From: Acidimicrobiia bacterium
Lineage (GTDB): Bacteria; Actinomycetota; Acidimicrobiia; Spongiisociales; Spongiisociaceae
Direction: 5' to 3'
Length of the DNA: 64,000 nt
NCBI GenBank assembly: GCA_041576165.1
Contig: JBFGLM010000013.1
Span: 1-64,000 of the forward strand
The notes below the pieces were generated by a model, which worked only from the letters and a program-made list of their open reading frames with translations, searched no databases and was not told the DNA's origin. Shown here in pieces: positions 2,920 to 38,034 of the stretch (the first letter of the stretch is position 1; every line of letters begins with the position of its first letter). Made by a program: the position numbers and the translations under genes.

Positions 2920-2978
2920 TTTAGATCGGCCATGGCATCTGGTGGGCTGATTCCCAGCAGTTGCTGAGGAGATCACAG

Positions 2979-6575: not shown

Positions 6576-7576
6576 TGGTGGACCTCTCTACCACCTACCT
6601 GGGGTTGGAGCTCGACTCGCCGCTCATGGCTTCGTCGTCGCCGTTGACCGGACACATCGACACCTTGCTCCAGCTCGAGGACGCCGGCGCGGCGGCAGTC
6701 GTGCTGCCGTCTTTGTTCGAGGAGCAGGTCGAGCACGAGGCGATGGCCGTCCACCACACCATGGAGGTGGGCTACGGCGCCTTCGCTGAAGCGGCCGGCG
6801 GATATCTACCCGAGCTCGAGGAATACAACAGCGGTCCGGCCGAGTACCTCGATCTGGTGCGCCGCGCCAAGGACGAGCTGTCGATTCCCGTCGTGGGATC
6901 GCTCAACGGCACCTCGGCGGGTGGGTGGACACTGTACGGCCGGATCCTCGAGGACGCAGGGGTTGACGCACTGGAGCTGAACATCTATCTCATCGCGGCC
7001 GACCCGCAGGTGAGCGGTGAGGCGGTCGAGCGACGGTACCTGGATCTGGTGGCTCAGCTGCGCGAGGCGGTGGACGTCCCGCTGGCCGTCAAGATTGGCC
7101 CCTACTTCTCGTCGATGGCCCACATGGCGATCCGTTTGGCTGAGGCAGGGGCAGACGGCCTGGTACTCTTCAACCGCTTCTACCAACCAGACATCGATCT
7201 GGACACGCTGACGGTCGCGCCCAACCTGCACCTCAGTCATTCCCCCGAGGGTCTAGTGGTCCTGCGCTGGCTCGCCATTCTGCGGGACTATTTGACGATC
7301 GACCTGGCGGCGACAACCGGGATCCACGAAGCGGCCGACGCGGTGAAGGCGATCCTGGCCGGTGCCAACGTCGCCATGATGGCGTCGGCTCTGCTGCGCA
7401 ACGGCCCCGCCCAGCTGGCGTCTGTCGCCCAGGGTGTCCAAGCCTGGTTCGACGAACGGGATTACGCGTCGGTCGGCCAGGCCCGAGGCAGCCTCAGCCA
7501 GAAGAACACGCCCGATCCAACTGCCTTCGAACGGGCCAACTACATGCAGACATTGACCAGCTACGCGGCCGGCTGA
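6575..7576 (+). CDS. Dihydroorotate dehydrogenase-like FMN protein (PFOR-associated type)
   Basis: DLSTTYLGLEL, LPSLFEEQ, ALELNIY, VLFNRFYQPDID, FERANY; TGATG overlap with nifJ. Confidence 0.9.
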   Translation: MVDLSTTYLGLELDSPLMASSSPLTGHIDTLLQLEDAGAAAVVLPSLFEEQVEHEAMAVHHTMEVGYGAFAEAAGGYLPELEEYNSGPAEYLDLVRRAKDELSIPVVGSLNGTSAGGWTLYGRILEDAGVDALELNIYLIAADPQVSGEAVERRYLDLVAQLREAVDVPLAVKIGPYFSSMAHMAIRLAEAGADGLVLFNRFYQPDIDLDTLTVAPNLHLSHSPEGLVVLRWLAILRDYLTIDLAATTGIHEAADAVKAILAGANVAMMASALLRNGPAQLASVAQGVQAWFDERDYASVGQARGSLSQKNTPDPTAFERANYMQTLTSYAAG

Positions 7577-8805: not shown

Positions 8806-11613
8806 TTACTCGAGCCGCTCCTCGGGAGATTCCTCTGTGGGTCCGTTCTGGGCGGTCGGCACCCGGTACGCGTCCGGTGTGGGCTTGGTCGGGCGGGCGA
8901 ACCATTCCGGCCGGCGGAGGCCGCCCGGCCCGGGACCCGGTTTGGTCAGCCGCAGCCACTCACGGTAGATCTCGATCGATTTGCCGGTGTCCGCCACGAC
9001 ATCCCCATAGCGATCACCCGGCTCGGCATGCGACAGTCGAACACGCTGATGCCACGCGTGCATACCTGACACCGGATCCGGATGGGGCGGGAACGCGAGA
9101 TTCTGGTTGACGCCGGCGTCGGACCACCAGATACGCTCCGAGTCCGGGTCGTCCGAGGAGAAGGGCTCGATCCCCTTCTTCTGCCGGAGCCGCCAGCGGC
9201 CATTGTCCAGCTTCTCGACATCCACGAGCGCAGAAGACCAGCGCTCGTTGCCCTGCTCGTCAAACAGCCGCCACCGCCCCATGTGGTGAGATGCGGCGAC
9301 CACCCCGGGCCGGATGCCCTCCGTGCGCCAGATCCGCATCACGAAATAGCCGGAGTCTGTAGTGATGCGGATCAGGTCGCCGGTGTCGAAGCCCAGTTCG
9401 TCGGCGTCGCTGGGATGTACCCACAGCGGATGCCCGTGGCTGATCTCATATAGATACTTCGCATTGCCCGAGCGAGTGTGGATCAAGGTGGGGAGCCGGA
9501 AGATCGGCAGCAGGATCCGCTCGTTGCCGGCCAGATCGAGGTCGCGCCAGTACACGTGGGTGTGGAGGTACGTCGGGATCGCCTCATCGTGCCATCCCCA
9601 TTCGTGCATGGTGGGCGACCACCATTCCAGGCGCTTCGACGGCGACGCGAAACCCTTCATGGGCGTCCCGTCAACGTCGACCCCCGTCACGGCGCCGTCC
9701 TTGCGGGCGAAGCCGTCCATTCCCACGTTGTCCGCCTCGACGGACTGTTCGTGCACGTTGTAGACGTCGGTGGCGATCTCGACGGCTCCGTATTTGCGCA
9801 TGTATTCCAGCGGAGTGAGCCCCTCGGCCTCAGCTTTGTCCGGGAGACCCGGGACCGAACGCTCGAACATCCAGCCGTAGTATTCGTCGACCGAGATCGG
9901 TCGGCTCGGATCGTTCGGAGATTCGAACCATTGCTTGATGCCGAGCGAGCCGTCGGGGTCGACCCGCCATGAGAGGTCGATCCAGAACTCGGTCTCCTCC
10001 CATACCTCACCCGGGTTGGCCTCATATGTGCGCTGGAACACCTGCCCGTCCCGCTCGCCTGCTACCCGCAGGACCGGCTGGCGGAAGCCGAGCCACTGGG
10101 CGGCATGAGTTTCGTATGAATGGGTGTCGTGCCGCTCGCTTCCGACCCCCATGGGCAACACATAGTCGGCGTATTGCGCCGTCTCGGACCAGGTCGGCGT
10201 GAGCGCGACGTGGAGGCCGACTTTGTCCTCGTCGGTCAGCAGCTCGATCCAGGAGAACCCGTCGGGGTTGGTCCATACCGGGTTGTAGACGCGGGTGAAG
10301 TACACCTCGAGCCGCCCGCGTCCTTCCTGGATCAGATAAGGGAGCAGGAACGACATCTCGTGGTGCGCAAATGGGTATTCGGGCGGCCAGAGCAATTCGT
10401 TCCAGCGGCTGTGCGGCGGCGGCATGTTCCAGTGAGCAGGCTTGAACTTGCCCCAGGCGCTGGGCGAGGTGCCGCCTTTGGTCCCCACCGATCCGGTCAG
10501 TACGTGCAGGAGCCATAGGCAGCGGGCGGCTTGCCAGCCGCCGAGGTTCCCGGAGCCGGTCGACCGCCAGGTGTGAGAGGCGAAGCGAGTGCCGGCGTCC
10601 TGGATGCCGTCCACGACCGCAACGATTCGCTCGACAGGTACACCGCACTCTTCTGCCGCCCACTCGAGCGAGTAATCGTTGTACGTCTCCTTGAGTAGGT
10701 CGATGAAGGCCTCGAAGCGGATAGCGTCTGGGCGGGCATGGGCCATGACCTCTTCCCAGTTGACCCAGCGGCGGATGAAATCACGGTCGATGGCATCGCG
10801 CTGGAGCAGTTCCCGAGCGATTGCCAGGAACAACGCCGGCTCGGTGCCGGGCCAGGTCGATAGCCAAATGTCTGACATGGAGGCGGTGTTGGACAGGCGG
10901 GGATCGATTGTGGCCAGCTTCGCACCGGCCTGTTTGCCCTCGATGATCCGCTGGGCGTGGGGATTGAAGTAATGGCCCGTCTCGAGGTGACTTGACAGCA
11001 ACAGGATGAACTTGGCATTGGCGAAGTCCGCCGAGGGCCGGTCGTGTCCCATCCACAAGGCGTACCCGGTGCGGGCCCCGGCCGAGCAGATGTTGGTGTG
11101 GCTGTTGTGGCCGTCGACGCCCCAGGCGCGCAAGGTCCGCTCCATGAAACCATCCTCACCAGGACGGCCAACGTGGTACATGATCTCGTCGTGGCGATCC
11201 TCCTGGAGAGCAGTGCGCATCCGTTCCGCGATGTCGGCCAGCGCGTCCTCCCAGGAGACTCGTTCCCAGCCGCCGTCACCCCGGGAACCGGTCCGCTTGA
11301 GCGGGTAGAGGATGCGTTCGGGGTCATACATCTGGTTGAGGGTGGCGGGGCCTTTGGCGCAGTTGCGGCCCCGCGATCCGGGATGGGCCGGATTGCCCTC
11401 GAACTTGCGGACCTCGCCGGTGTCCCGATCAACGTAGGCCAGCAGCCCACAGGCCGACTCACAGTTGAAACACGTGGTCGGCACCAGTCGGTAGCGGTGC
11501 GCCACCTTGTCGGGCCAGGCGCGGGCGTCGTACTCCTCCCAATCGTCCCAGCGATCGGGCGGCGGATAATTGGTCAGCCCTTGAGGATGCAGCCTCGGAA
11601 TCTCAGTCGTCAT
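8806..11613 (-). CDS. Molybdopterin (bis-MGD) oxidoreductase catalytic subunit, DMSO-reductase family, no Tat signal
   Basis: TTCFNCESACG...RNCAKG Fe-S motif, HTNICS, IDPRLSNTA, ADYVLP, IHTRS; GGAGG RBS before ATG 11613. Confidence 0.92.
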   Translation of the reverse strand: MTTEIPRLHPQGLTNYPPPDRWDDWEEYDARAWPDKVAHRYRLVPTTCFNCESACGLLAYVDRDTGEVRKFEGNPAHPGSRGRNCAKGPATLNQMYDPERILYPLKRTGSRGDGGWERVSWEDALADIAERMRTALQEDRHDEIMYHVGRPGEDGFMERTLRAWGVDGHNSHTNICSAGARTGYALWMGHDRPSADFANAKFILLLSSHLETGHYFNPHAQRIIEGKQAGAKLATIDPRLSNTASMSDIWLSTWPGTEPALFLAIARELLQRDAIDRDFIRRWVNWEEVMAHARPDAIRFEAFIDLLKETYNDYSLEWAAEECGVPVERIVAVVDGIQDAGTRFASHTWRSTGSGNLGGWQAARCLWLLHVLTGSVGTKGGTSPSAWGKFKPAHWNMPPPHSRWNELLWPPEYPFAHHEMSFLLPYLIQEGRGRLEVYFTRVYNPVWTNPDGFSWIELLTDEDKVGLHVALTPTWSETAQYADYVLPMGVGSERHDTHSYETHAAQWLGFRQPVLRVAGERDGQVFQRTYEANPGEVWEETEFWIDLSWRVDPDGSLGIKQWFESPNDPSRPISVDEYYGWMFERSVPGLPDKAEAEGLTPLEYMRKYGAVEIATDVYNVHEQSVEADNVGMDGFARKDGAVTGVDVDGTPMKGFASPSKRLEWWSPTMHEWGWHDEAIPTYLHTHVYWRDLDLAGNERILLPIFRLPTLIHTRSGNAKYLYEISHGHPLWVHPSDADELGFDTGDLIRITTDSGYFVMRIWRTEGIRPGVVAASHHMGRWRLFDEQGNERWSSALVDVEKLDNGRWRLRQKKGIEPFSSDDPDSERIWWSDAGVNQNLAFPPHPDPVSGMHAWHQRVRLSHAEPGDRYGDVVADTGKSIEIYREWLRLTKPGPGPGGLRRPEWFARPTKPTPDAYRVPTAQNGPTEESPEERLE

Positions 11614-11723
11614 TTCCGGCCTGCCTCCGTTTCTCGACTTCGTCGCAGCGCACGAGGAGGGGTCACGTACGGCGGCCGGGCACCCAGCGCACCACCCGCT
11701 CCCCCAGCCGCGCCGACCCTCAT
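11610..11723 (-). CDS. Possible 37-aa linker ORF coupled at both ends
   Basis: ATGA overlap with the NrfD-fusion stop and ATGA overlap with the Mo-subunit start. Confidence 0.3.
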   Translation of the reverse strand: MRVGAAGGAGGALGARPPYVTPPRALRRSRETEAGRK

Positions 11724-13324
11724 GAGAGCGGCACCGCCTGCCCCGCCCGCACCAAGGCATCGTCGGCGAACCAGATGCCCGCCATCGCAGCAAGACCACC
11801 CAACGAGGCAAGTGCGTCCTGGCCAGTCGCCAGGCTCACCCACCCGGCGGCAATGGGAACCGTCACCCCGAGCAACTGGCCGCCCACCCACCAGCGGAGG
11901 GCAAAGTGGCCCCGGGTGAGGTGATGCATGGCCGCCTCGACATTGCGAGTCGGGTGCCGGCTGAGCAGGTCTCCCAGCGCCAGCAACCCGAGCGCAGCGG
12001 CTCCGCCGATCATGGCCCAGACAAACGCCTCGAATCCGTCTGGGCTGATCACCCGCCGTGTGACCGCCCCCGAACCGGCGTCGTACAAGATGGTGCTGAA
12101 CACTGCCGCTGCACCACCGCCGACTGCGAATGCTCCCGCCAGCATGTGCCACAGAAGCATCGGGCTCTGCCACAGGTCCCGCGCCTCTGCCTGGCCGAAG
12201 AGAAACGCCGTATATCCGGCAGTGGCCAGCGCCAGCGGCACTCCGACCGACAGCATGACCTTCACGAGGCCGACGTTGCCCATCAGCCCGGCGACAAACC
12301 AGATACCCAGCACAGCCGCGTAGGCGCCGAGGATCCACGCACCCCGCACCAGCCACGAGCCGGGGTTCCCCTTGGTCAGGAGGTAGTAGAACCGGTCGGG
12401 TCGCTTGAGGTCGGCCACCAGCAGCGCCCCGGTCGCGAGCAGGAAGATGCCGGCGATGAGCGGAGTGCCCCAGCGGGCCCAGTTGGTCTGCATGTCTGCT
12501 CCCGCCCACCAGGCCAGCGCCAGCGCCAGCACCAGGCCCGCCGAGATACCCTTCGTGAGGAAGTAGCTCGACACCCGCCAACCCCAAGGGGCCGGATGGT
12601 CGGTGTTGTAGGTCACCCGGGGCGGCTCGTGATCGCGGCGCAGCGTCCCCGGCCCGGCCGCCGGCCGGTCCCCGTTGGGGGGAGTGAGATCGACTGCCAG
12701 CCATGACGAGCCGGGCTCCGTGTCGCGCCAGATTCCGCCGCCGTCTCCCAGCGTCGTGGCGGCGAGCGGGTCGAGGTTGGCTGCCTCAGCGCCCTTGTAC
12801 CACAGGTTGGGTGCCGTTCCCTGCTCGGGCGCCCGCTGGAACAGCGTGTCGGTCGCAACCATGTGTGAGATGACGGTGGTCGGGTCGTGCAGGTCCCCGG
12901 CAATGATTGCTTGTTCCGGACATACGACGACACAGGCCGGCTCGATCCCAACCTCCACCCGATGGGCGCAGTAGTTGCACTTTTGCGCAGTGTGCTCGTC
13001 CGGGTCGATGTACAACGCATCGTACGGGCAGGCCTGCATACAGCTCTTGCACCCGATACAGCGATCCGTGTCGAAATCGACAATGCCGTCCTTGCGGGTG
13101 TAGAGCGCCTTGGTGGGGCAGATCGCCACACAGGGGGCGTTGGAACAGTGGTTGCAGCGCATCACCGAAAAGAAGCGCTTCGTGTCGGGCCATTCACCCT
13201 TCTCGACGTACTTGACCCAAGTTCGGTTGACCCCGAGGGCCACGTTGTGTTCCGTCTTGCAGGCGACTGTGCAGGCGTGGCAACCGATGCACTTCGTCTG
13301 ATCGATCACGAATCCGTACTGCAC
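11720..13324 (-). CDS. 4Fe-4S dicluster (DmsB/NrfC-like) fused to an NrfD/PsrC-like membrane anchor
   Basis: CIGCHACTVAC, CNHCSNAPCVAICP, CIGCKSCMQACP, KCNYC...PACVVVCP; hydrophobic C-terminal half with DLKRPDRF and SWLVRG; AGGAG RBS before GTG 13324. Confidence 0.92.
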   Translation of the reverse strand: MQYGFVIDQTKCIGCHACTVACKTEHNVALGVNRTWVKYVEKGEWPDTKRFFSVMRCNHCSNAPCVAICPTKALYTRKDGIVDFDTDRCIGCKSCMQACPYDALYIDPDEHTAQKCNYCAHRVEVGIEPACVVVCPEQAIIAGDLHDPTTVISHMVATDTLFQRAPEQGTAPNLWYKGAEAANLDPLAATTLGDGGGIWRDTEPGSSWLAVDLTPPNGDRPAAGPGTLRRDHEPPRVTYNTDHPAPWGWRVSSYFLTKGISAGLVLALALAWWAGADMQTNWARWGTPLIAGIFLLATGALLVADLKRPDRFYYLLTKGNPGSWLVRGAWILGAYAAVLGIWFVAGLMGNVGLVKVMLSVGVPLALATAGYTAFLFGQAEARDLWQSPMLLWHMLAGAFAVGGGAAAVFSTILYDAGSGAVTRRVISPDGFEAFVWAMIGGAAALGLLALGDLLSRHPTRNVEAAMHHLTRGHFALRWWVGGQLLGVTVPIAAGWVSLATGQDALASLGGLAAMAGIWFADDALVRAGQAVPLS

Positions 13325-13418
13325 ACCGCTCCTCACCCGACCGTGCGACTACGAGCAACCTCGTGGAACGTACTCACGCCCGTCACCGCGCATTCTCGAT
13401 TCTGACACAGCACAATGC

Positions 13419-13435
13419 AAAAGTCCGTACAAATT
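13419..13435. promoter_or_regulatory. AT-flanked GTCCGTAC operator-like site, copy 1
   Basis: AAAAGTCCGTACAAATT in the divergent intergenic region; same core recurs inverted at 14511. Confidence 0.45.
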
Positions 13436-13652
13436 CGTAGACGGCTCCATACAATACTGACAAACACATTTCGGAGCAGCACGTGAGCGATACCGCCAAT
13501 CCCCGCTGGACCCTGGTCAAGCGATCACGATGCGTGGCGACGCCTCCAGTGCGGCTTCGGCAAACATGCCGGTCGGACCGGAACCGCGCCCAACTGACCC
13601 GCACGCTGCCCCACCGGCGCGCGAGCATGGAGCTGGCGACGGAGGTGTACTG

Positions 13653-14450
13653 ATGCGCCGGATCGTGCTGGTGGTGATCCTTGTCCTGGCTGCCTGCGGG
13701 CAAGGCGAGTCGGTGGAGGTCCGACCGTTTGAGGAGATCCAGGCGTCGGATGTCACCTTTGAGAACGATCCGACCTTCCCCGGGAGGGCCATCATGCGCG
13801 TGACCACCACCGAACCGGCCATCTGCGCGATCGTCTGGGGCGAGGCCGAGACGCTCGGTCAGATGAACAACAGCCTCAACATGAACGGCACCGGGATAAT
13901 CCAGCACGATGTGTTGCTGCCCGGTGCCGAAGCCGGGCAAACGTACTTCTACCGGCTGCAAGGATCCACCGCCGACGGCACTCTGTTCCAGTCCGATCTC
14001 ATGACGTTCACGCTGCCCGCGGCCGACCCGGCGGCGCAAGCTGATGCTCCCGGCGGGGCCAATCTTGCCCTCGAGGCGACGATCACCGACGTCAGCAGCG
14101 AATTCTCGGACTCATGGGCCGCCGCCAACGCCATCGATGGCGACCTAGCCACCGAATGGTCGACGGCAGGCGACGGAGATGAGGGATACATCGTCGTGGA
14201 CCTCGGTCGATCGCACACGGTCGCCGTGCTCGAATTCATGACCCGGACGATGGCCGACGGCTCTGCCACCACAACCACCTATACAGTGACCGTTGATGGC
14301 AGCGATCCGCTCGGCCCCTTCGACGCAGGCAATCCCGCCGACCGCAAACTGGTGCCCGTATCGGTCACAGGCCGCGTATTCCGCTTCGACGTCCAGGATT
14401 CGACCGGCGGCAACACGGGCGCCATCGAGATCGGTATCTACGAGCAATGA
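13653..14450 (+). CDS. Lipoprotein with a C-terminal discoidin (F5/8 type C) domain
   Basis: GGAGG RBS; lipobox LAAC; NLALEA...SSEF...NAIDGDLATEWST...VDLG...EIGIY. Confidence 0.85.
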   Translation: MRRIVLVVILVLAACGQGESVEVRPFEEIQASDVTFENDPTFPGRAIMRVTTTEPAICAIVWGEAETLGQMNNSLNMNGTGIIQHDVLLPGAEAGQTYFYRLQGSTADGTLFQSDLMTFTLPAADPAAQADAPGGANLALEATITDVSSEFSDSWAAANAIDGDLATEWSTAGDGDEGYIVVDLGRSHTVAVLEFMTRTMADGSATTTTYTVTVDGSDPLGPFDAGNPADRKLVPVSVTGRVFRFDVQDSTGGNTGAIEIGIYEQ

Positions 14451-14504
14451 GGCCGCTCTACTCTCCCGAAAGGGGCCGCCCCGGCACAAGCCTGTTCAAG
14501 TCGA

Positions 14505-14526
14505 TAGAATAAAAGTACGGACATTT
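14505..14526 (+). promoter_or_regulatory. -10 box (TAGAAT) followed by operator-like site, copy 2
   Basis: TAGAAT-AAAAGTACGGACATTT upstream of the MBL-rhodanese gene. Confidence 0.5.
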
Positions 14527-14560
14527 AGGCAGGAGCAACGACGCAGGCGAGGAGCGCTCG

Positions 14561-15901
14561 ATGAAGATCACCAACATTCGAACACCGGGTTTGGGCGACG
14601 CCACCTACATCCTGTCCCACGAAGGCGTATCGGTGATCGTCGATCCGCAGCGGGATGTGGAGCGCTTCCTGGCAGCCACTGAGGACACGATCGTGCGGAT
14701 GGTCCTCGAGACCCATCTGCACAACGACTACGTGTCCGGAGGCCGGGATGCCGCCCGCCGGACCGGCGCCGAGTTGATCGTGCCGGCCGCGGCTGCCCCG
14801 GCGTATCGGCATACCCCGGCCTTTCATCTGGAGGACATCGCAGCCGGCCCTTTCATCGTGCGCCCGATCCACACGCCCGGGCACACCCCAGAACACACGT
14901 CGTATCTCATCGTCGTGGACGGTGAACCGCTGGCACTCTTCAGCGGCGGATCGTTGCTCGTGGGCTCGGCCGGCCGCCCCGATTTGCTCGGCACAGAGCG
15001 AGCCGACTCACTGGCGCGGCTCCAGTACATCTCGGTCACCCGCCTGGCCGAGCTGCCCGACGAGGTCGAACTACTCCCGACCCACGGCGAGGGTTCGTTC
15101 TGCACCGTGTCCGGCGCCGGCCGCACCACATCCACCATCGGCGAAGAGAAAAAGAGCAACCCTGTGCTGCATTTCGCCGACGCCGAAGCGTTTGTCAAAG
15201 CGCAACTCGCCGAATTGCAACCGTATCCCACCTACTACCGGCACATGGGGCCCGCCAACTTGATGGGTTTTGCACCAATGCCCGCGACAGGCCCCGAGCA
15301 GGTCAGCATCGATGAACTGGATGCGCTGGCGGATGTCACGCTGATCGACATCCGCCCCAAGCAAGAGTATGCCGACGCTCATATTCCCGGCTCGATCGGA
15401 CTGGAGATGGGCGACCAGGTCGGTGTGTGGGCCGGCTGGCTGCTTCCCCACGACGCGCACATCGTGCTGATCGCGAATCACGATCAGGACGTCGAGGAGG
15501 CGGCTGCCCAGTTCGCTCGGATCGGCATGGACGGGCTCATTGGAGTCCACTACGGGATCGGCGATTGGACGGCGGCCGGCCGCCCCACCGCCGGCCATGG
15601 CACAGTGGACGTTGAAGGCTTCGTCGAGGCGTACCGGCGGGGCGAAGTAACCAACCTGCTCGATGTGCGTGCGCCCAGTGAGTTCGAAGCCGGCAGCCTG
15701 GACGGAGCTATCTGGCGGTATCTGCCGGACCTGGCACAGAATATGCCGGACGGCCTCGATGGAGCGCATCCTGTCTGGGTAGCGTGCGCGAGCGGCTACC
15801 GCGCCAACGCCGCCGTTCGGTTCATCGAACAGGCCGGCTACGAAGCAGTGGTGCTGATCGGCGGTGGGATCCCCAACGTTCTCGCCGCACTACAGCGTTG
15901 A
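14561..15901 (+). CDS. MBL-fold hydrolase / persulfide dioxygenase-like domain fused to two rhodanese domains (CstB-like architecture)
   Basis: ETHLHNDYVSG, HTPGHTPEH, PTHGEGSFC, DIRP...HIPGS, DVR...CASGYRA. Confidence 0.88.
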   Translation: MKITNIRTPGLGDATYILSHEGVSVIVDPQRDVERFLAATEDTIVRMVLETHLHNDYVSGGRDAARRTGAELIVPAAAAPAYRHTPAFHLEDIAAGPFIVRPIHTPGHTPEHTSYLIVVDGEPLALFSGGSLLVGSAGRPDLLGTERADSLARLQYISVTRLAELPDEVELLPTHGEGSFCTVSGAGRTTSTIGEEKKSNPVLHFADAEAFVKAQLAELQPYPTYYRHMGPANLMGFAPMPATGPEQVSIDELDALADVTLIDIRPKQEYADAHIPGSIGLEMGDQVGVWAGWLLPHDAHIVLIANHDQDVEEAAAQFARIGMDGLIGVHYGIGDWTAAGRPTAGHGTVDVEGFVEAYRRGEVTNLLDVRAPSEFEAGSLDGAIWRYLPDLAQNMPDGLDGAHPVWVACASGYRANAAVRFIEQAGYEAVVLIGGGIPNVLAALQR

Positions 15902-16049
15902 GCTCAACCCCACCCGGCGCGTCGCCGGTGATCTCGGTTTGTGCCCTCGCCCGCCCGAGGGTGGGCATTTCCTGTCCGGAACGCCGAACGCACGCCGGGG
16001 GTGGCAAGCCCCGAAGCGTGACATATTGCACTCCGCCCGGCTGCCGACC

Positions 16050-17555
16050 ATGACGCGCTCTGCGAAGTACCGGTTTGGGTTCCATGACGTGGTCGCCGGA
16101 GTCAGCGTGGCCCTGGTGGTCATCCCCCAAAGCTTGGCGTATGCCGAGATCGCCGGTATGCCGCCCTACACCGGCCTGTACGCGGCGGCCCTACCGGCGA
16201 TTGCCGCGGCTCCGCTGGCGTCGTCCCGCTACCTACAGACCGGTCCTGTGGCCATGACGGCCCTGCTGTCGTTCGGAGCACTGTCGGCGATCGCCGAACC
16301 CGCCACCGACGAGTACGTCGGACTCGCCATGCTGCTCGCGATCGTCGTGGGCGTGGCCCGGTTGGCGCTGGGAGCCGTGAAGGGCGGAATGATCACGAAC
16401 TACATGTCGCCCTCCGTGGTGCTCGGCTTCACCACTGCGGCCACGCTGCTGATCGTCGCCTCGCAGAGTGCCCTAGTTGTGGGCCTACCCGATCCCGATT
16501 CCGATCTGATGCGGCGGGCGGTGGACGTGGTCGCCAACCCGGGCACGTGGAACTGGGAGGCGCTGGCGCTGAGTGTGGTCGTGGCGATTGTCATCATCGG
16601 CGGGCGCCGCGTCCACCCACTGTTCCCGGGGGTCTTGCTGGCAGTGGTTGTCGGCATCGCCGTCTCGGCCGCCACCAGCTACTCGGGAGAGCTGGTCGGT
16701 CAGATCCCGGCTGGATTCCCCCCGTTCTCCCTGTCCTTGCCGTGGAGCCGGATCCCGGAGCTGGTGGTCCCCGGCATCATCATCGCCGCGGTTGGCTTCG
16801 CCGAGCCGACCGCCATCGCCCGCACAATGGCGGTGCACGACCGGGAGCGATGGGATGCATCCCGGGAGCTGATCAGCCAGGGCTTAGCCAACGTCGCCAG
16901 CGGCATATCCGGCGGATTCCCGGTCGGGGGGTCCTTTTCCCGCAGCTCGATCAACCGGGTAGCTGGAGCGAGGTCGCCGTGGGCGGGCGCCGTGACCGGG
17001 CTGGCGGTGCTGGCATTCATGCCCTTCGCCGGTGTGCTGGCCGAGCTCCCGCTGGCCGTATTGGGTGGCATTGTCATCGTGGCGGTGTTCGGGCTGATCC
17101 GGATCCCCGATATGGTGCGTCTGGCCCGCGTGTCGTGGGGTCAGGCCTTCGTGGCCTGGTCGACTGCGGCAGCCACCATCCTGCTGTCACCCAGGGTGGA
17201 CCTGGCAGTCCTCTTTGGAGTTCTGGTCGCTGCCGGCGTCCACATCTATCGGGAGTCGTCACGCACCCGGGTGGTCACCAACTTCAAGGAGCCCGAACTC
17301 GAGATCCGGCTCGGCGGCGTCCTGTTTTACGCCTCGGTCGGTGCGCTGGAAGAGGCGCTGACTGAGCAGGTAGCGGCGAACCCCACCGTTGAACGCTTGG
17401 TACTGGACCTGGGCCGGCTCGGTCGCATCGATCACTCGGGGGTCATGATGCTCCGGACCTTCGTGAACGAGGCGCGCCTGGCCGGCCTCGAGGTGCGGGT
17501 GGCGAACATCCCCAGCCATGCTCAGGGGATATTTCAGCGGGTCGGCGGAATCTGA
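16050..17555 (+). CDS. SulP family anion transporter with STAS domain
   Basis: AGVSVALVVIPQSLAYAEIAG, TGPVA, GGSFSRS, C-terminal LDL...IDHSG. Confidence 0.93.
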   Translation: MTRSAKYRFGFHDVVAGVSVALVVIPQSLAYAEIAGMPPYTGLYAAALPAIAAAPLASSRYLQTGPVAMTALLSFGALSAIAEPATDEYVGLAMLLAIVVGVARLALGAVKGGMITNYMSPSVVLGFTTAATLLIVASQSALVVGLPDPDSDLMRRAVDVVANPGTWNWEALALSVVVAIVIIGGRRVHPLFPGVLLAVVVGIAVSAATSYSGELVGQIPAGFPPFSLSLPWSRIPELVVPGIIIAAVGFAEPTAIARTMAVHDRERWDASRELISQGLANVASGISGGFPVGGSFSRSSINRVAGARSPWAGAVTGLAVLAFMPFAGVLAELPLAVLGGIVIVAVFGLIRIPDMVRLARVSWGQAFVAWSTAAATILLSPRVDLAVLFGVLVAAGVHIYRESSRTRVVTNFKEPELEIRLGGVLFYASVGALEEALTEQVAANPTVERLVLDLGRLGRIDHSGVMMLRTFVNEARLAGLEVRVANIPSHAQGIFQRVGGI

Positions 17556-17583
17556 GTGGCCGGCGCCTCCCGGGCACGAGTTT

Positions 17584-17619
17584 GAGCTGTGCCCCGGCGG
17601 AGGCACCGGGGCACAGCTC
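17584..17619. terminator. Perfect 14-bp hairpin, probable bidirectional terminator
   Basis: GAGCTGTGCCCCGG-cggaggca-CCGGGGCACAGCTC downstream of sulP. Confidence 0.75.
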
Positions 17620-18064
17620 GATGACGTCCGGCTAGGACCCCGACGCGCCTGAGCGCATCACCCAGGAATAGCGATACACAAGGTGATGCGTCATTGAGAT
17701 CCGTCCTCGTTGGTGTGACGGACGGATGAGAGGACGGCCCGGCTCGCCGAGATCCGTGATTGCGCGGACGCCGCGACCAGGGGACCGAACGTGCCAACAG
17801 GCCAGGTAGTACGCCCCATCAGTGACGGATTCCGTGAGTTCGAGAACTCAGGGAAGCAGGGCGACAACACGCCTGCGACGGCAGGGCCAAAGGCCACACA
17901 CCAGTGCAGCACCGATCCGCACGACACGCGCCGTGCAGATGGTTCGGTAGTGGTTTTCGACTCTTCGACCACGGGATGCCCCCTGACCTACTTGGAAGAT
18001 CGACGGGTGTCAGCGGGGCCTTGAGGAAATTCTCACCAAATCCAGAAAGAGTTTGCGGCCGCGT

Positions 18065-19135
18065 TCAGCGCTTGAGCTCGGCCCGCAGCGGCCCGTGATC
18101 GAGACGCGGCAGGACGTACCGCGCCACCAGATCGGCCTCGTTCAGATGCGGGTAACCGGAGAGGATGAAGCCGTCGACTCCGGCCTCCCGGTATGCCCCC
18201 AGCTTGGCGACGACCTGGTCCGGGTCGCCGACGATGGCGGCGCCGGCCCCGCTGCGGGCCCGCCCGATGCCGGTCCACAGGTGATCCTCGGCGAAACCAT
18301 CGTCGTCGCTGTCGTCCCGTAAGCTGGCTTGTCGCTGCACGCCGACCGAGGTTGCATCCAGCGAACGCTGCCGGATCTCGCGGCCGACCTCGTCCTCCAG
18401 CTTCGAGACCAGTCGGGCGGCGGCGCCACGGGCCTCCGCTTCGGTCCCACGGACGATCACGTGCGTACGGAGCCCGTACTGGAGGGTGCGGCCGTGCCGT
18501 GCGGCGCGTTCGGTCATCTCCTTGATGGTTGCTCCAACGGCCGAGACGGTGTCCGGCCATGTCAGGAAGACGTCGGCGGCTGCCGCGGCCGTCTCTTTGG
18601 CGGCTTCTGAGAAGCCACCGAAATAGAACGGAGGGCAGACTCCCGATACCGGTCTCACCCTGGGCGGCTCCAGCTGTAAGTCGAGAAACTCGCCGTGATA
18701 GTCGACCGATTCGCCGTTGAGCAGCGCCCGCAGGACCTGCATCCACTCGAGCGTTCGCTGGTAGCGGGGCGCAGACTCCAGTGTTTCCCCTGGAATGTCG
18801 CTCGAAATGATGTTGACGGTCAGCCGGCCGTCGAGCATCTGGTCGAGGGTGGCGAGCTGGCGGGCCAATTGCGGTACCCACATCTCGCCCATCCGCACTG
18901 CCGTGAGCAGCTGCATGCGGCGGATCTGGGGCGCCACGGCCGCCGCAAAGGCGATCGTGTCGATCCCCAACGTGTAGCCAGACGGGAGCAGTATGTTGTC
19001 GAACCCGAGTCGGTCGGCCGCCAGCACGATGTTGCGGCAATGCTCGTAGCTCGATCGAAGCATCGGTTCGGGCACCCCCAGGAACTCGTAGTCGTCGTCG
19101 CATAAGGCCCCGAACCAGGAGATTTCGACGCTCAC
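18065..19135 (-). CDS. LLM-class flavin monooxygenase, sulfoquinovose monooxygenase-like (SmoC/SquD)
   Basis: SWFGALCDDDYEFLGVP...LRSSYEHC, NIISSDIPGE, LWTGIGRARSG, FILSGYPHL match my recollection of the SmoC subfamily. Confidence 0.8.
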   Translation of the reverse strand: MSVEISWFGALCDDDYEFLGVPEPMLRSSYEHCRNIVLAADRLGFDNILLPSGYTLGIDTIAFAAAVAPQIRRMQLLTAVRMGEMWVPQLARQLATLDQMLDGRLTVNIISSDIPGETLESAPRYQRTLEWMQVLRALLNGESVDYHGEFLDLQLEPPRVRPVSGVCPPFYFGGFSEAAKETAAAAADVFLTWPDTVSAVGATIKEMTERAARHGRTLQYGLRTHVIVRGTEAEARGAAARLVSKLEDEVGREIRQRSLDATSVGVQRQASLRDDSDDDGFAEDHLWTGIGRARSGAGAAIVGDPDQVVAKLGAYREAGVDGFILSGYPHLNEADLVARYVLPRLDHGPLRAELKR

Positions 19136-20043
19136 GGCAACGGGACTCCTTCTGAGGCTTCGATGATGTCGTAGACATCGTTTCGGTTCAGGCGGACGTC
19201 GAGTGCCGCGACGGCGGCTCGGATGCGGTCCAGATTCTGCGTGCCGATGATCGCCACAGGCTTGGAGGGATGAGCCAGCACGAAGGCCAACGCCACGGCC
19301 GATCGGTCGGTGCCTTCTCGCTCAGCCAGGCGGTCCAGCGTCTCCACCAGTTCGGCGCGGGTGCCCTCGCCGTGGGCCAGGGCACCGCCCCCCAGTGGAC
19401 TCCACGCCAGCGGCGTGACTTTGTCCCGCATCAGCCGGTCAAACTCGCCATTACGCAGCGGCTCGAGGTGGACCGCCGAGTACTGTGGCTGGCTGGTGGC
19501 AATTGGGAAGGGCAGATAGGACGTCAGTGCGTCGTACTGGGCGAGCGTGAAGTTGGACACCCCCACTTCCCGGATCTTGCCTTGTTCGCGCAGCGCCGCC
19601 AGCGTCGTCGCCAGCTCTTCGGGATGGGTGAACAGATCGGGTCGGTGGATCTGATATAGGTCGATCATGTCTGTGCCCAGCCGCCGGAGCGATTCATCGA
19701 CTGCAGACCGCAGGTAATCGCTGCCGGAGTCATAAGGAACCGGAGGGGTGATACCACCCTTGGTGGCCAAGATGATCCGATCGCGCAGATTAGGGGCGTC
19801 GGCCAACACGGCGCCGAGGAGCTCCTCGGCGCGCCCGAACCCGGTTCCTCCCCAATCGAGACCGTACACGTCTGCGGTGTCGATCAGGTTCATTCGTGCC
19901 ACGAGGGCGGTCTCTATGCGATCCCGGGCCTCGGCGGGCGACATCTGGACGAATCGCCAGCAGCCGAACGCCAGTGGCCCGGTAGTCATGCCTGACGAGC
20001 CAATAGGACGCGGACCCGAGTTCGTGAGGTTTGGCGCAGTCAC
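19132..20043 (-). CDS. Aldo/keto reductase, 6-dehydroglucose reductase-like (SmoB/SquF)
   Basis: DTADVYG, ATKGG, IHRPD, GVSNF, AWSPLGGG; GTGA-coupled to the monooxygenase. Confidence 0.8.
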   Translation of the reverse strand: MTAPNLTNSGPRPIGSSGMTTGPLAFGCWRFVQMSPAEARDRIETALVARMNLIDTADVYGLDWGGTGFGRAEELLGAVLADAPNLRDRIILATKGGITPPVPYDSGSDYLRSAVDESLRRLGTDMIDLYQIHRPDLFTHPEELATTLAALREQGKIREVGVSNFTLAQYDALTSYLPFPIATSQPQYSAVHLEPLRNGEFDRLMRDKVTPLAWSPLGGGALAHGEGTRAELVETLDRLAEREGTDRSAVALAFVLAHPSKPVAIIGTQNLDRIRAAVAALDVRLNRNDVYDIIEASEGVPLP

Positions 20044-20090
20044 CGACGTATCCTATCGGCCGGAGAATGCCGACACGTCAGGCGTAGGTC

Positions 20091-21155
20091 ATGGACGAGA
20101 TCAGGATCGGGATCGTCGGCTCGGGCATGATGGGGCTCGAGCATATCGCCAACATCAATGCCATCCCCGGCGCCCGCGTCGCTGCGCTGGCAGACCCTCA
20201 CAACCCGTCCCTCGACGCGGCAGAAGTGCTGTCGATCACGCCGGTCGCGCGTTTCAGCGATCACCGCGATCTGGCCAAGGCCCAGACGTGCGATGCGGTG
20301 ATTGTCGCGACTCCGAACATGACGCACACCCAGGTGTTGATAGACCTGCTGGCGACCGACTTGCACGTCCTCGTCGAGAAACCGCTCTGCACCACGGTGT
20401 CCGACTGCCGGCGGGTCATCTCCGCAGCCGACGGCCGTGCCCCGATCACCTGGGTCGGCCTGGAGTACCGCTATATGCCCCCCGTCGCCCGCCTGATCGA
20501 CGAGGTTGCGGCCGGAACCGTCGGGTCCGTGCGGATGGTCGCAATCCGAGAACATCGCTTTCCGTTTCTTCCGAAGGTGGGCGATTGGAACCGCTTCAAT
20601 GAGAACACCGGCGGCACGTTCGTAGAGAAGTGCTGTCATTTCTTCGACCTCATGAATCTGGTGGCCGGCTCGGCGCCACTCCGGGTGATGGCGTCCGGCG
20701 GCCAGGACGTCAACCATCTGGAGGAACGTTACGACGGGCGGCGGCCCGACATCCTCGACAACGCATACGTGATCGTCGAATACGACAACGGCGTTCGGGC
20801 GATGCTCGATCTATGCATGTTCGCCGAGGGCGGCCGCCATCAGGAAGAGGTTGTCGTAGTGGGCGACAAAGGCAAAGCTGAGGCCTACCTACCTTCGTCA
20901 GAGCTCTCGATCGGCCTCCGTAGCTCATCGTGGTTTTCACCGACCACCGAGGTGGTCCATAATTGCGACGCTCGAGTGCCGGGCCACCACCACGGTTCTT
21001 CCTACATCGAGGATCTGCGGTTTGTGGAGGCGATTCGGTCCGGGACCCCGCCGGAGGTCACCCTCGACGACGGTCTGATGTCGGTCGCCGTGGGGGTGGC
21101 GGCCCACCGCTCGATTGACGAACAGCGCGCGGTCTACCTCTCCGAGGTGATGTGA
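20091..21155 (+). CDS. Gfo/Idh/MocA-fold protein, NAD+-dependent sulfoquinovosidase-like (GH188/SqgA)
   Basis: GSGMMG, EKPL, EHRFPFLPKVGDWNRF, GGTFVEKCCHFFDLM, HHG; divergent from the SmoB/C-like genes. Confidence 0.75.
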   Translation: MDEIRIGIVGSGMMGLEHIANINAIPGARVAALADPHNPSLDAAEVLSITPVARFSDHRDLAKAQTCDAVIVATPNMTHTQVLIDLLATDLHVLVEKPLCTTVSDCRRVISAADGRAPITWVGLEYRYMPPVARLIDEVAAGTVGSVRMVAIREHRFPFLPKVGDWNRFNENTGGTFVEKCCHFFDLMNLVAGSAPLRVMASGGQDVNHLEERYDGRRPDILDNAYVIVEYDNGVRAMLDLCMFAEGGRHQEEVVVVGDKGKAEAYLPSSELSIGLRSSSWFSPTTEVVHNCDARVPGHHHGSSYIEDLRFVEAIRSGTPPEVTLDDGLMSVAVGVAAHRSIDEQRAVYLSEVM

Positions 21156-23932
21156 CCGAGCCCGACCGCAACGGGCGTCTGCGGGCGCTGCTCCGATACT
21201 TCGCGACGCTGGCCCGACCCGCCCGGGAGCAGCGTGCCGGTCTACTGGACGGTTCCAAGACCATGTCTGAGATGGTCTACATGGGTGATGACCTCGAGTG
21301 GATCGACCAGCCCGTCTCCTACATTGCCGATTTCGGTGCCGACCGGCTCCCTGCCCTCTCGAAGCTCTCCAGCATCCAGAGCCTGCACGAAGGAGAGCAG
21401 GTGCTCTACGCCGGCTGGCCCTGGCTCTCGGGCACGGTGCCGGTCGATGGGGAGGAAACCCGCGTCTGCCTGCCTGTCCTGGAAGCTGCGGTTGATGTGT
21501 CGCCCAACCGCCTCGGGCTGGGTTATCGGGTGCGGCTGGTCGGCCCGCCCGAGCCGACCCCGCTATTGGCGGACACCTCGGAGGAGTTGTGGGACATATT
21601 CGAAGCCGTTGCCGCTCCGGTCTCGAAGCGGCGTGGGGACGGGTCGGCTGAGGAACGCCTTGCGGCGGCTTTGTGGGACCGGCTGCGGGACGAGCTCGAG
21701 GTGCTTGCACATATCCCCGAGGTCGCGGTGGCCGACAACCTGCCGACCCGGCTGCGGTCGCATCCCGGCTTACACCTGGTGCTCGGAGCAGCGCTCTACG
21801 TGAAAAGTGGCGTCCGGCCGGGCTCGCGCAGCCATGAGCTGCTTGCCGCCCGGGACGTGAGGCTGGCGGGGACCGCGCTCGACGTTGTGTACAACGGCGC
21901 ACCGGGCACCGGTCCCGTTCGTGAACGCCGAGTCGTGGAAACGACCTCGCTCACCCGGCCTCAACATGTGGCGACTGCCTCCGCCCTCAATCGGGACCTC
22001 ACCGTGGTCGCCGGGCCACCGGGGACCGGAAAGACCCACGCAGCAGTGGCCGCAGCGCTGGCCGCAGTCGGTCACGGCGATTCTGTGTTGATCGCCACGA
22101 CCTCCAGGTTCGCTGCCGACGTCATCGCCCAACGCTTCCGAACGGTTCCCGGGTTGCGTTTCTTCCGGTTTGGTTCCGAGGAGCGGCCCGCGCTGCTCGA
22201 GGCGAAGGAGTCAGACACCCCGCAACCGGGCGGCGTCCAAGGAGGTGAGTTGTACGGGGCGGTGGCCCAGGACCTTCGCTCGGAAGCCGATCTCGAGCGC
22301 GCCCTCCGCACCCGCCGGCGGGCGATGGCGTTCGGGGCGGTTCCCCGCTCCGACGTCGACCTCTCCAAAGTGGGTAAGTGGGTGGCTCGAGCAGATGGAC
22401 ACGGGTGGTGGGCCACCCGTGTCCGGCGCAAAGCCCAGAAGGCGCTGGCGATGCCGCCCGACACCTCGCTCGAACAGCTCCGACAGGCTCTGGAATTCCA
22501 GCACGCCGAGCGGTTGATCGAAACGGTCATCAGGACCGGGGGCGTCTCGCTCGATGCGGTATGGGCCGACCTCGAACAAGCGGTGGACGAACGGCACCAC
22601 CGCGGCCGCCGGTGGGTTGCGTCGACCTCGGCCCCGGCCGCCCAGTCGCAGGTGCTGGCCACGTTGGACACGGCGTTGCGGGCAGGGCCTACGGCCCGGC
22701 GTCGCAAGCTAGCCGCCATGAAGTCGGCCCAAATCACGGCCAGTCTCCCGCTGTGGATCGGCACGCTGACCGAGATCAGCGAGTACTTGCCGCTGGCGCC
22801 CGCCATGTTCGACCTGCTGATCATGGATGAGGCTTCTCATACGAACCAGCTCGATGCGATCCCAGCGCTGGTGCGAGCCCAGCGGGCCATGATCCTGGGC
22901 GACCCGAGACAGCTTCGCCACGTGTCGTTTGTTGGCGATGAGCACATGACGGCTGCAGCCGGGACCGCTGCCCTGGGGGACGACCTCGCGCTGAAAGCCG
23001 ACATCCGCCGGAACAGCGCGTTCGATGTGGCGTCGATGGCGGGTCCGGCCGTGTGGCTCAACGAGCACCACCGCTCTGCGCCGCACATCATCAATTTCTC
23101 GGCGCAGCGGTTCTACGACGGCCTCATCATCATGACCCGGCACCCGCACAACGAGACGCTGGACCTCATCCACACCGAGCATGTGCCGGATGGTGCATTT
23201 GACCGCGGGCTGAACACCGCGGAGGCCAATCGGGTCGAAGACCTGATCCGCCGGCTCGATTCGGGCGGTCCCGGGTCGATCGGGGTTGTGACACCCTTCC
23301 GCAACCAAGCAGACCTCCTCGAAGAGCGAATGCTGAACCGCTTCGATGACGCGGACATCCGCCGCCTGCGGCTACGGGTGGGCACGGTGCACGGTTTCCA
23401 AGGCAACCAGCGCGACACGATGATCATCTCGACTGTCGTGAGTCCGGACAACCTGAGTGCGCTGCGGTTCGTCGAGGATCCGAACCTGTTCAATGTGATG
23501 GTCACCCGGGCTCGTCTGAGCGTGTGGCTGGTTACTTCGGTGACCGCCGACGACCTTCCCCGCAACGGCCTGCTCGCCGAATACCTCCGCCATGCCGACG
23601 AGAAGCCCGTGGAACTGTTCACCACATCACCTGACGAAGGCTGGACGACTGAGGTTTTCACTGCGCTCCGGGGTTACGACATGCGGGTGGTTCCGGAATA
23701 CCCGGTCGGCCCGTACACGATTGATCTGGTGATCGGGGAGGGACCTGCGGCGATCGGGGTCGAGACGCGGGTGCACGACGGGGGTATCGGCGCCCACATC
23801 GAGCGCCATCTCGCACTGCGCCGGGCCGGGTGGACGCTCATCGACGCGTTTGAAAGCCGGTGGATGACCCGGCCCGAGGCGGCCGCACAGCACATTGCCG
23901 AGATGGCGGTTCGGGCGACCAGGAGCCTCTAG
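21152..23932 (+). CDS. Superfamily 1 (DNA2/NAM7-like) helicase with a C-terminal restriction-endonuclease-like domain
   Basis: GPPGTGKT, MDEAS, GDPRQL, HHRS, TVHGFQG, NVMVTRAR; EYPVGPYTIDLVI...GVE. Confidence 0.85.
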   Translation: MTEPDRNGRLRALLRYFATLARPAREQRAGLLDGSKTMSEMVYMGDDLEWIDQPVSYIADFGADRLPALSKLSSIQSLHEGEQVLYAGWPWLSGTVPVDGEETRVCLPVLEAAVDVSPNRLGLGYRVRLVGPPEPTPLLADTSEELWDIFEAVAAPVSKRRGDGSAEERLAAALWDRLRDELEVLAHIPEVAVADNLPTRLRSHPGLHLVLGAALYVKSGVRPGSRSHELLAARDVRLAGTALDVVYNGAPGTGPVRERRVVETTSLTRPQHVATASALNRDLTVVAGPPGTGKTHAAVAAALAAVGHGDSVLIATTSRFAADVIAQRFRTVPGLRFFRFGSEERPALLEAKESDTPQPGGVQGGELYGAVAQDLRSEADLERALRTRRRAMAFGAVPRSDVDLSKVGKWVARADGHGWWATRVRRKAQKALAMPPDTSLEQLRQALEFQHAERLIETVIRTGGVSLDAVWADLEQAVDERHHRGRRWVASTSAPAAQSQVLATLDTALRAGPTARRRKLAAMKSAQITASLPLWIGTLTEISEYLPLAPAMFDLLIMDEASHTNQLDAIPALVRAQRAMILGDPRQLRHVSFVGDEHMTAAAGTAALGDDLALKADIRRNSAFDVASMAGPAVWLNEHHRSAPHIINFSAQRFYDGLIIMTRHPHNETLDLIHTEHVPDGAFDRGLNTAEANRVEDLIRRLDSGGPGSIGVVTPFRNQADLLEERMLNRFDDADIRRLRLRVGTVHGFQGNQRDTMIISTVVSPDNLSALRFVEDPNLFNVMVTRARLSVWLVTSVTADDLPRNGLLAEYLRHADEKPVELFTTSPDEGWTTEVFTALRGYDMRVVPEYPVGPYTIDLVIGEGPAAIGVETRVHDGGIGAHIERHLALRRAGWTLIDAFESRWMTRPEAAAQHIAEMAVRATRSL

Positions 23933-24095
23933 CCTCACTTGGCCGACGGCTCCACACACGAGCGCGTGCTGGAGATCAATGCGGGCAAAGTGGCCATGCC
24001 CGGTTCACCGCTGATGTCGCCACACGGTGCGTGGGTTCGACGCCGCTGAGGGTCACGGCAGCCGCGCCCCGCCGAGAATGATCCAGCTGCCGCTC

Positions 24096-25133: not shown

Positions 25134-25136
25134 GCG

Positions 25137-28054: not shown

Positions 28055-28136
28055 CGGTTGCTGCCTCCCTTGGATGCTCGAACACTCACCCTAGAGCCAC
28101 AGCTCTCCTCATGCCTCGGAACTGCCGCGAAACACG

Positions 28137-28164
28137 GCGGGCGCCGGTAGTCACCGGCGCCCGC
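28137..28164. terminator. Intercistronic hairpin after the binding-protein gene
   Basis: GCGGGCGCCGGT-agtc-ACCGGCGCCCGC, perfect 12-bp stem. Confidence 0.7.
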
Positions 28165-28193
28165 TTGTTCGTCGGTCAGTTCATCAACCGACC

Positions 28194-29615: not shown

Positions 29616-29844
29616 CCGTCCTCCTGTCTTATCCGCCAAGCCAAACGAGCGGACTATGAGCAGCTCCACTCGCCGATGCAGGTTGGCGGACCGGAGCATA
29701 GCGCCGGAGGGGTGGCGGGACCACAGGGGACGATTGGACTGAGCCGTTGCCGGGCCGATCTTCTGGCCAGATCGGATCGCCCGACCAGATCGCTATCGAA
29801 GGATGCATCTAACGACCGCGGCCGGCCCCAAGGGCTACCGGCTG

Positions 29845-37292: not shown

Positions 37293-37328
37293 GAGTCGAT
37301 GATGCGCCAATCACACGACCGGGTGCAT

Positions 37329-37364
37329 CGGACCGATTGCCCTGTCGACCGGGTCTTCGGTCCC
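37329..37364. promoter_or_regulatory. Tandem DosR/DevR-type boxes
   Basis: CGGACCGATTGCCC (37329-37342) and GGGTCTTCGGTCCC (37351-37364), 22 bp apart. Confidence 0.7.
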
Positions 37365-37383
37365 GGCAGGTAGCCTGGCGGCT

Positions 37384-38025: not shown

Positions 38026-38034
38026 TCGACCGCG

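Follow-up and report, generated by a model that had tools for sequence, protein, structure and literature searches.

The sulfoquinovose monooxygenase (sulfo-SMO) pathway for degradation of the plant sulfosugar sulfoquinovose, as known from the smoA-I genes of Agrobacterium tumefaciens and from Roseobacter-type clusters, combines an ATP-binding cassette (ABC) importer with a SmoC-type monooxygenase and a SmoB-type reductase. For the Roseobacter clusters, the accessible part of PMC10755693 reports SqgA, a member of glycoside hydrolase (GH) family GH188, in place of the GH31 sulfoquinovosidase (SQase). Among molybdenum (Mo) enzymes composed of a catalytic subunit, an iron-sulfur (FeS) subunit, and an NrfD-type membrane anchor, the sulfite:quinone oxidoreductase SoeABC of Allochromatium vinosum and Aquifex aeolicus appears in the excerpted text of PMC8076601 as the only characterized enzyme that faces inward. 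The same excerpt describes SoeC as inverted in orientation and reports it only from Proteobacteria, Clostridia, and Aquificae. Here, we analyzed a stretch of 64,000 nucleotides (below, the window; positions 1 to 64,000 of contig JBFGLM010000013.1, assembly GCA_041576165.1) from an Acidimicrobiia bacterium of the family Spongiisociaceae, in which genes comparable to both systems lie side by side between positions 8806 and 21155. The original prediction regarded this block as one integrated sulfur island. Our analysis favors, with a probability of about 65%, two independent modules that adjoin by chance here.

The window is part of one contig of a 161-contig, 5.1-Mb genome that is rated 96.5% complete and 7.5% contaminated. 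Pfam and NCBIfam scans detected within 8806-21155 all eight gene products that had been predicted there, namely, a Mo oxidoreductase, an FeS-NrfD fusion, a discoidin lipoprotein, a metallo-β-lactamase (MBL)-rhodanese fusion, a SulP transporter, a luciferase-like monooxygenase (LLM), an aldo-keto reductase, and a Gfo/Idh/MocA protein. The first five lie in module A (8806-17555) and the last three in module B (18065-21155, continuing to 29699). GC content is uniform throughout the block (0.646 to 0.666). The SulP gene of module A and the SmoC (LLM) gene of module B are convergent, with 510 bases between them. This gap (17556-18064), which contains only an open reading frame (ORF) of 93 residues without a family match (17691-17972, minus strand), is the boundary of the two modules.

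Linkage of the two halves was not found in any of the relatives examined. An alignment of 34 SmoC relatives, scanned against species-representative genomes, gave at least 588 confirmed stretches, the best 80 of which were taken; all 80 lie in assemblies of Acidimicrobiia or other Actinomycetota. These loci were probed by tblastn with the window proteins (E ≤ 1e-15, more than half of the query), and a further 80 SmoC loci, 34 of them at least 10 kb long, were obtained from metagenomes. The Mo subunit, the FeS-NrfD protein, the MBL-rhodanese, SulP, and the discoidin protein occur at none of the 80 genome loci, nor do they, or DsrE, TusA, or a rhodanese-MBL protein, occur at any of the 80 metagenome loci. 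Reciprocally, neither SmoC nor SqgA was found at any of 41 Mo enzyme loci (18 from relatives, 20 from a sample of the phylum, and 3 from plasmid records). In all 10 complete chromosomes that carry both the Mo enzyme and SmoC, the two are separated by distances of about 107 kb to more than 2 Mb. The Mo enzyme is present somewhere in 33 of 50 SmoC-bearing genomes and in 26 of 41 relatives overall; thus, it is not enriched in genomes with SmoC.

These counts speak against the integrated island, that is, an arrangement in which the sulfo-SMO genes, the Mo enzyme, the MBL-rhodanese, and SulP were assembled and kept together so that sulfite from sulfoquinovose supplies respiratory electrons and sulfate is exported. 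A lack of linkage in relatives is also what the original prediction had specified as evidence against it. We consider such an island improbable, although the modules do adjoin here, its chemistry is coherent, and contigs from four public DNA sequencing runs contain near-identical pieces of both halves, whose depths are alike in two runs from different studies (6.2 to 7.7 in run X1 and 3.6 to 4.7 in run X5). Also in its favor, a closer relative has a Mo subunit of 89% identity and a SmoC of 80% identity, each recorded with 100894 bases as its longest contig, so the arrangement may persist on one contig within the genus. However, the convergent orientation of the modules excludes a shared promoter, and the true continuation of the sulfo-SMO cluster, with its ABC importer, is on the opposite side. 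The similar depths bear likewise on the join itself. None of the listed contig pieces from the four DNA runs spans the SulP/SmoC junction (17664-18610), which leaves an assembly error as a small possibility, and the contamination rating of this metagenome-assembled genome points the same way. Nevertheless, we consider a chimera at the SulP/SmoC boundary highly improbable, given that there is no GC shift at the join, that the depth of the pieces matches in both studies, and that another genome of the same family (G004) holds the best relatives of both halves (81% identity for the Mo subunit, 76% for SmoC, and 88% for a permease). No public RNA run containing the stretch was found. In our opinion, chemical plausibility and adjacency in a single genome do not amount to evidence for a functional island.

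For the right half taken by itself, the sulfo-SMO reading of the original prediction held, with one addition: the Gfo/Idh/MocA protein, to which it had assigned no role, is the predicted SQase. The LLM gene corresponds to the frame 18065-19135 (minus strand); an overlapping ORF, 18033-19178, has no Pfam match. Its product scores 371 bits to 7OH2 and 363 bits to 7OLF, compared with 237, 223, and 222 bits for entries of the alkanesulfonate monooxygenase SsuD, and these scores, along with the adjacent SmoB gene, identify it as a putative SmoC-type monooxygenase that depends on reduced flavin mononucleotide and is predicted to release sulfite from sulfoquinovose. The aldo-keto reductase gene (19132-20043, minus strand) encodes a predicted SmoB-type enzyme converting 6-oxo-glucose to glucose; its top solved matches are the SmoB entries 7BBY and 7BC0 (169 bits), and since the next family follows by a small margin (151 bits), the assignment also draws on synteny. 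According to the excerpted text of PMC8795539, 7OH2 is RoSmoC, 7OLF is SmoC, and 7BBY and 7BC0 are SmoB.

The Gfo/Idh/MocA gene (20091-21155, plus strand) encodes a protein that scores 332.6 bits to 8QC3 and 319.9 bits to 8QC2. These structures are those of ArSqgA and FlSqgA, respectively, NAD+-dependent sulfoquinovosidases of family GH188, and the residues of ArSqgA in contact with sulfoquinovose are Lys107, Tyr136, Arg166, Leu170, Lys172, Glu189, His193, and His321 (accessible part of PMC10755693). All eight residues, including the sulfonate-binding Arg166 and Lys172, are identical in the window protein when the numbering allows for a 13-residue tag offset derived from the alignment. Judged by these solved matches and conserved contacts, the gene encodes a predicted SqgA and is the glycosidase of the pathway.

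The other genes of the putative pathway lie farther from module A. Around SmoC, the usual order is substrate-binding protein, permease, permease, SqgA (on the opposite strand), SmoB, and SmoC, and the reverse strand of the window shows the same order, with a kinase gene and a helicase gene between permease and SqgA. Among the 80 genome loci, SmoB was found at 75, SqgA at 53, the two permeases at 47 and 43, and the binding protein at 40. Because this conserved order includes the importer, the sulfo-SMO locus of the window spans 18065-29699 and extends away from the Mo enzyme. The importer itself (25137-29699, minus strand), as recognized by Pfam and by its conservation beside SmoB and SmoC, consists of a binding protein (28194-29699) and permeases (26102-28054 and 25137-26105). 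Other recurrent neighbors at these 80 loci are a MalK-type ATPase (28 loci), a GH13 enzyme (13 loci), LacI (10 loci), a major facilitator superfamily transporter (8 loci), and GlpD (5 loci), while no sulfite-handling gene recurs around SmoC. Within the window's own family, SmoC is present in 2 of 29 genomes. The other one, G004, has the order permease, SqgA, SmoB, and SmoC, and the genes after SmoC encode OtsA, OtsB, and a GH13 enzyme. The metagenome scan returned no SmoC closer than 76% identity.

Two genes interrupt the sulfo-SMO cluster. A superfamily 1 helicase with a C-terminal REase_MTES_1575 domain (21152-23932, plus strand; Pfam) begins 4 bases before the stop codon of SqgA and is weakly matched in NCBIfam by ProA, Hhe, and PLuB, which are anti-phage helicases; the gene is present at none of the 160 SmoC loci and is an insertion within the cluster, outside the pathway. 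A GHMP-family kinase gene (24096-25133, minus strand; Pfam) lies directly 3' of the permease gene and shows weak NCBIfam matches to mevalonate, heptose, and shikimate kinases. It is likewise absent from all 160 SmoC loci, its position being particular to this genome. Known sulfo-SMO clusters differ from that of the window not only in these inserted genes but also in having a flavin reductase gene and a SmoF-like binding protein. No flavin reductase (SmoA) gene is among the window's genes, while three PF01613 genes exist on other contigs of the genome, and SmoF (7OFY and 7NBZ) is not among the matches of the binding protein at E ≤ 1e-5. A further difference is the host, an Acidimicrobiia lineage. 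Apart from these features, the right half is by all appearances a further case of the described combination of sulfo-SMO with a GH188 enzyme, SqgA replacing the GH31 SQase as in the Roseobacter type.

The original prediction knew of no description of such a system in this lineage, which holds only in part. The accessible part of PMC13372026 makes mention of sulfo-SMO clusters from Actinomycetota, whereas a literature search for Acidimicrobiia and sulfoquinovose, in which the supplements of sulfoquinovose papers were not covered, found nothing relevant. SmoC-type clusters are very common in Acidimicrobiia, and their abundance implies that these marine, sponge, and soil actinobacteria are probably significant mineralizers of sulfoquinovose. 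SqgA homologues (57 to 64% identity) also exist in 21 of 40 relatives that lack SmoC. At two such loci (G007:C1:359363-360421 and G020:C1:3462718-3463773), the homologue is located beside a 5'-nucleotidase-like gene, and at a third (G002:C1:1397040-1398095), it is beside a GH13 enzyme and ABC transporter genes. No sulfoquinovose catabolic genes were recognized at these three loci, and the orphan GH188-like enzymes may have a different substrate.

In our view, the Mo enzyme with its fused FeS-NrfD protein is a more interesting object than the proposed island. The catalytic subunit, of the Mo bis(pyranopterin guanine dinucleotide) (Mo-bisPGD) type (8806-11613, minus strand; PF04879, PF00384, and PF01568), is encoded in a long ORF that extends to 11811. 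Its start is most likely Met67 of this ORF (position 11613), giving a protein of 935 residues with which relatives align from residue 1 to 13 onward. It has an N-terminal CX2CX3C...C FeS motif, and its Cys176, which aligns with a Cys of ArrA and with Cys173 of Thermus PsrA, presumably the Mo ligand of that enzyme, is likely the Mo ligand here as well. No twin-arginine (RR) motif is present in the Mo subunit, and the homologues of Rhodococcus and Natrinema likewise lack one. The N terminus of the Thermomicrobium homologue fits, at residues 5 and 42, the plain pattern RRx[FLIVM], and the Azoarcus homologue (33% identical) has a clear twin-arginine translocation (Tat) signal and a gene for a TorD-type chaperone. 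The fused FeS and NrfD-type quinone anchor protein of 538 residues (11720-13336, minus strand; PF13247 and PF03916) has 16 Cys residues in four groups of four, which fits four 4Fe-4S clusters, and eight hydrophobic helices. With helix boundaries set by hand, its loops contain 12 Lys and Arg residues on the FeS side compared with 2 on the opposite side; for the Rhodococcus homologue, scanned automatically, the counts are 14 and 0. The lack of a Tat motif and this charge asymmetry indicate that the catalytic and FeS parts should both face the cytoplasm, held by the FeS-NrfD fusion, so that the cytoplasm-facing Mo enzyme that had been postulated is supported.

The Mo enzyme has no functional name in the libraries that were searched. 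NCBIfam returned 22 matches for the Mo subunit, among which there is no SoeA model and the named families are far below their cutoffs (DmsA/YnfE, 181 bits compared with 777.7; PhsA, 178 bits compared with 694). Its best solved match is Thermus PsrA (118.6 bits, over the N-terminal third), no Soe entry is among its matches in the PDB, and the ESM Atlas gave only generic names. We found no paper that names the enzyme in these lineages, and a literature search on SoeABC and Acidimicrobiia yielded nothing that assigns soeABC to Acidimicrobiia. Several plasmid matches were considered as SoeA references and rejected: the Loktanella match is a formate dehydrogenase, those of Thioclava and Phaeobacter are other Mo enzymes, and none of the tblastn matches of Azoarcus, Sulfurovum, and Ralstonia was verifiable as SoeA.

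In architecture, the enzyme can be likened to SoeABC: there too, the Mo-bisPGD subunit has no Tat signal, the FeS subunit contains four clusters, the NrfD-type anchor has eight helices, and the predicted orientation is toward the cytoplasm. SoeABC is encoded by separate genes in the order soeA, soeB, soeC, whereas in the window B and C are fused and encoded upstream of A (order BC-A), and an FeS-NrfD gene accompanies the Mo subunit at 40 of the 41 loci. PsrABC and PhsABC share with the window enzyme an FeS subunit and an NrfD anchor as well as the Cys aligned with PsrA Cys173, and they provide the best solved and named matches; however, they are exported by Tat and face the periplasm, a topology opposite to that of the window enzyme, and the PhsA score lies far under its cutoff, as given above. 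The Mo enzyme is thus best called a variant of the complex iron-sulfur molybdoenzymes with B and C fused and a predicted inward orientation.

Single-copy Mo subunits of 73 to 81% identity are present in the 26 relatives mentioned above, and the enzyme was detected in 30 of 301 evenly drawn Actinomycetota genomes (a tally that includes G157, flagged as unpublished). Homologues also exist on Thermomicrobium and haloarchaeal replicons. Among the 41 Mo enzyme loci, a CstB-like MBL-rhodanese and SulP are each found at 16, ArsR at 13, DsrE at 11, TusA at 8, DUF202 at 6, and a rhodanese-MBL protein at 5, and at least one such sulfur gene is present at 19 of the 20 phylum-level loci. Thus, the grouping of the Mo enzyme with an MBL-rhodanese and SulP recurs in other Actinomycetota, and this part of the original prediction stands. 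On plasmid pRHL3 of Rhodococcus jostii RHA1, the genes are arranged as DsrE-TusA-FeS/NrfD-Mo-Mrp, beside two MBL genes, DUF202, ArsR, and thioredoxin. DsrE and TusA genes are directly upstream and co-oriented both in Rhodococcus and at four loci of Acidimicrobiia orders, and in Thermomicrobium a CsoR-type regulator gene is directly upstream of the Mo/FeS-NrfD pair.

Two further gene types adjoin the Mo gene in relatives. A protein of about 265 to 280 residues without a Pfam match is encoded directly 3' of the Mo subunit at 6 of the 41 loci (L009, L010, L011, L019, L020, and L004) and is a possible accessory or maturation factor; the window lacks it and has an M19 dipeptidase gene in its place. 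A gene for an Mrp/NBP35-type FeS cluster carrier overlaps the end of the Mo gene at L023 (Rhodococcus jostii pRHL3, 11799-12968) and L107 (Natrinema, 10900-12060). The occurrence of this overlap in both an actinobacterium and a haloarchaeon suggests that the carrier is a dedicated maturation factor of this Mo enzyme family.

The MBL-rhodanese gene of module A (14561-15901, plus strand) encodes an MBL-fold domain similar to persulfide dioxygenases (PF00753) and two rhodanese stretches (PF00581), the C-terminal one with the loop CASGYR as read in the sequence. Its solved matches are 3TP9 (180 bits) and 3R2U (142 bits), both over the full length, the latter being presumably a CstB relative, as well as BpPRF (59 bits) and, weakly, ETHE1 (4CHL; E = 2e-6). 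The sequence has an HLHNDY motif as a candidate for the iron-binding His/His/Asp triad of persulfide dioxygenases. CstB- and PRF-type fusions, as in the cst operon and the BigR/blh operon, have the same MBL dioxygenase-like domain followed by a rhodanese with a catalytic Cys loop. ArsR- or CsoR-type regulators are found near the Mo loci of relatives, whereas none was recognized beside the MBL-rhodanese gene of the window. In contrast to CstB-type operons, the partner transporter is SulP and not TauE. The gene for this SulP-family anion transporter with a STAS domain (16050-17555, plus strand; Pfam and NCBIfam) lies in ORF 15864-17555, and from a reading of the sequence its start is most likely near 16050; it probably forms one operon with the MBL-rhodanese gene. 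The F5/8 type C (discoidin) lipoprotein gene (13653-14450, plus strand, in ORF 13530-14450; Pfam), with a lipobox VLAAC after Met42, had been counted as part of the island. It occurs at none of the 201 loci (41 of the Mo enzyme and 160 of SmoC), and we therefore treat it as a bystander that belongs to neither module.

If the two modules are independent, module B would be an ordinary Acidimicrobiia sulfo-SMO pathway, the steps of which would follow the characterized one (PMC8795539, as excerpted). The ABC importer would take up sulfoquinovosyl glycerol or sulfoquinovose, SqgA would split the glycoside, SmoC, with reduced flavin from a reductase encoded elsewhere, would cleave the C-S bond, yielding 6-oxo-glucose and sulfite, and SmoB would reduce 6-oxo-glucose to glucose. 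Module A would be a recurrent Actinomycetota module for the detoxification of reactive sulfur made inside the cell. The MBL-rhodanese, as a persulfide dioxygenase, would convert persulfide sulfur to sulfite or thiosulfate, the Mo enzyme would oxidize sulfite to sulfate and pass two electrons to menaquinone, and SulP would carry the anion through the membrane. Oxygen-dependent persulfide dioxygenases give cytoplasmic sulfite or thiosulfate. Such dioxygenases as partners and SoeABC as the only inward-facing precedent favor sulfite oxidation, and by this analogy we tentatively propose, at slightly less than even odds, that the Mo enzyme oxidizes sulfite to sulfate with reduction of menaquinone and that SulP moves the anion. 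If so, this would fill a gap concerning the cytoplasmic disposal of sulfite in these lineages. Several observations weigh against this proposal. The genome has four PF00174 (SUOX-type) and four TauE matches, so that the Mo enzyme need not be the sole route for sulfite; the top named relatives of the Mo subunit by score, PsrA and PhsA, are reductases; no recognizable sulfur gene is among the listed neighbors of the Mo enzyme in Natrinema; and within about 8 kb of the Mo enzyme, none is found in most genomes of the window's family (L001 to L008, L012, L014, and L016).

Instead of sulfite, the substrate might be sulfane sulfur delivered by TusA, DsrE, or a rhodanese, in which case the Mo enzyme could be a sulfane dehydrogenase or else a reductase of persulfide, polysulfide, or thiosulfate that faces the cytoplasm and uses quinol. 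The named matches with the best scores are Psr/Phs-type enzymes, and Psr is supplied with substrate by a rhodanese-like sulfur carrier. In addition, PhsA is the top match of the nearest Tat-bearing relatives, those of Sulfurovum (39% identity) and Azoarcus (341.6 bits for the latter). The DsrE-TusA pairs upstream in Rhodococcus and at the four Acidimicrobiia-order loci agree with this. However, the scores of the window protein to all named families are far under cutoff, the partner proteins are oxygen-dependent dioxygenases yielding sulfite or thiosulfate, which suits an oxidative route in aerobes, and SulP near the Mo enzyme at 16 of the 41 loci suggests an oxyanion product. A substrate of this kind therefore seems rather unlikely to us. 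Returning to sulfite oxidation, sulfite released by SmoC could reach the Mo enzyme by cross talk through the common cytoplasm and not through a dedicated island. A broader proposal, which is doubtful but a little less so than one of sulfane sulfur in place of sulfite, would make the fused inward-facing enzyme the actinobacterial counterpart of SoeABC, that is, a menaquinone oxidoreductase of sulfite (or of carrier-bound sulfane sulfur) that also draws electrons from SmoC sulfite. If true, both the carbon and the sulfur of sulfoquinovose would be sources of energy, although the modules have not arisen as one unit.

Outside the two modules, the window has two other notable gene groups. On the plus strand at 2961-7576, a pyruvate:ferredoxin oxidoreductase-type gene of 1,204 codons is followed by a dihydroorotate dehydrogenase-like gene (NF005741, 432 bits), and the two long ORFs as called overlap by about 330 bases. 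At 36849-39071, three Pyridox_ox_2 (PNPOx-like) genes are interspersed with genes for LuxR-type response regulators, a GAF histidine kinase, and a universal stress protein, in what looks like a stress- or redox-responsive cluster.

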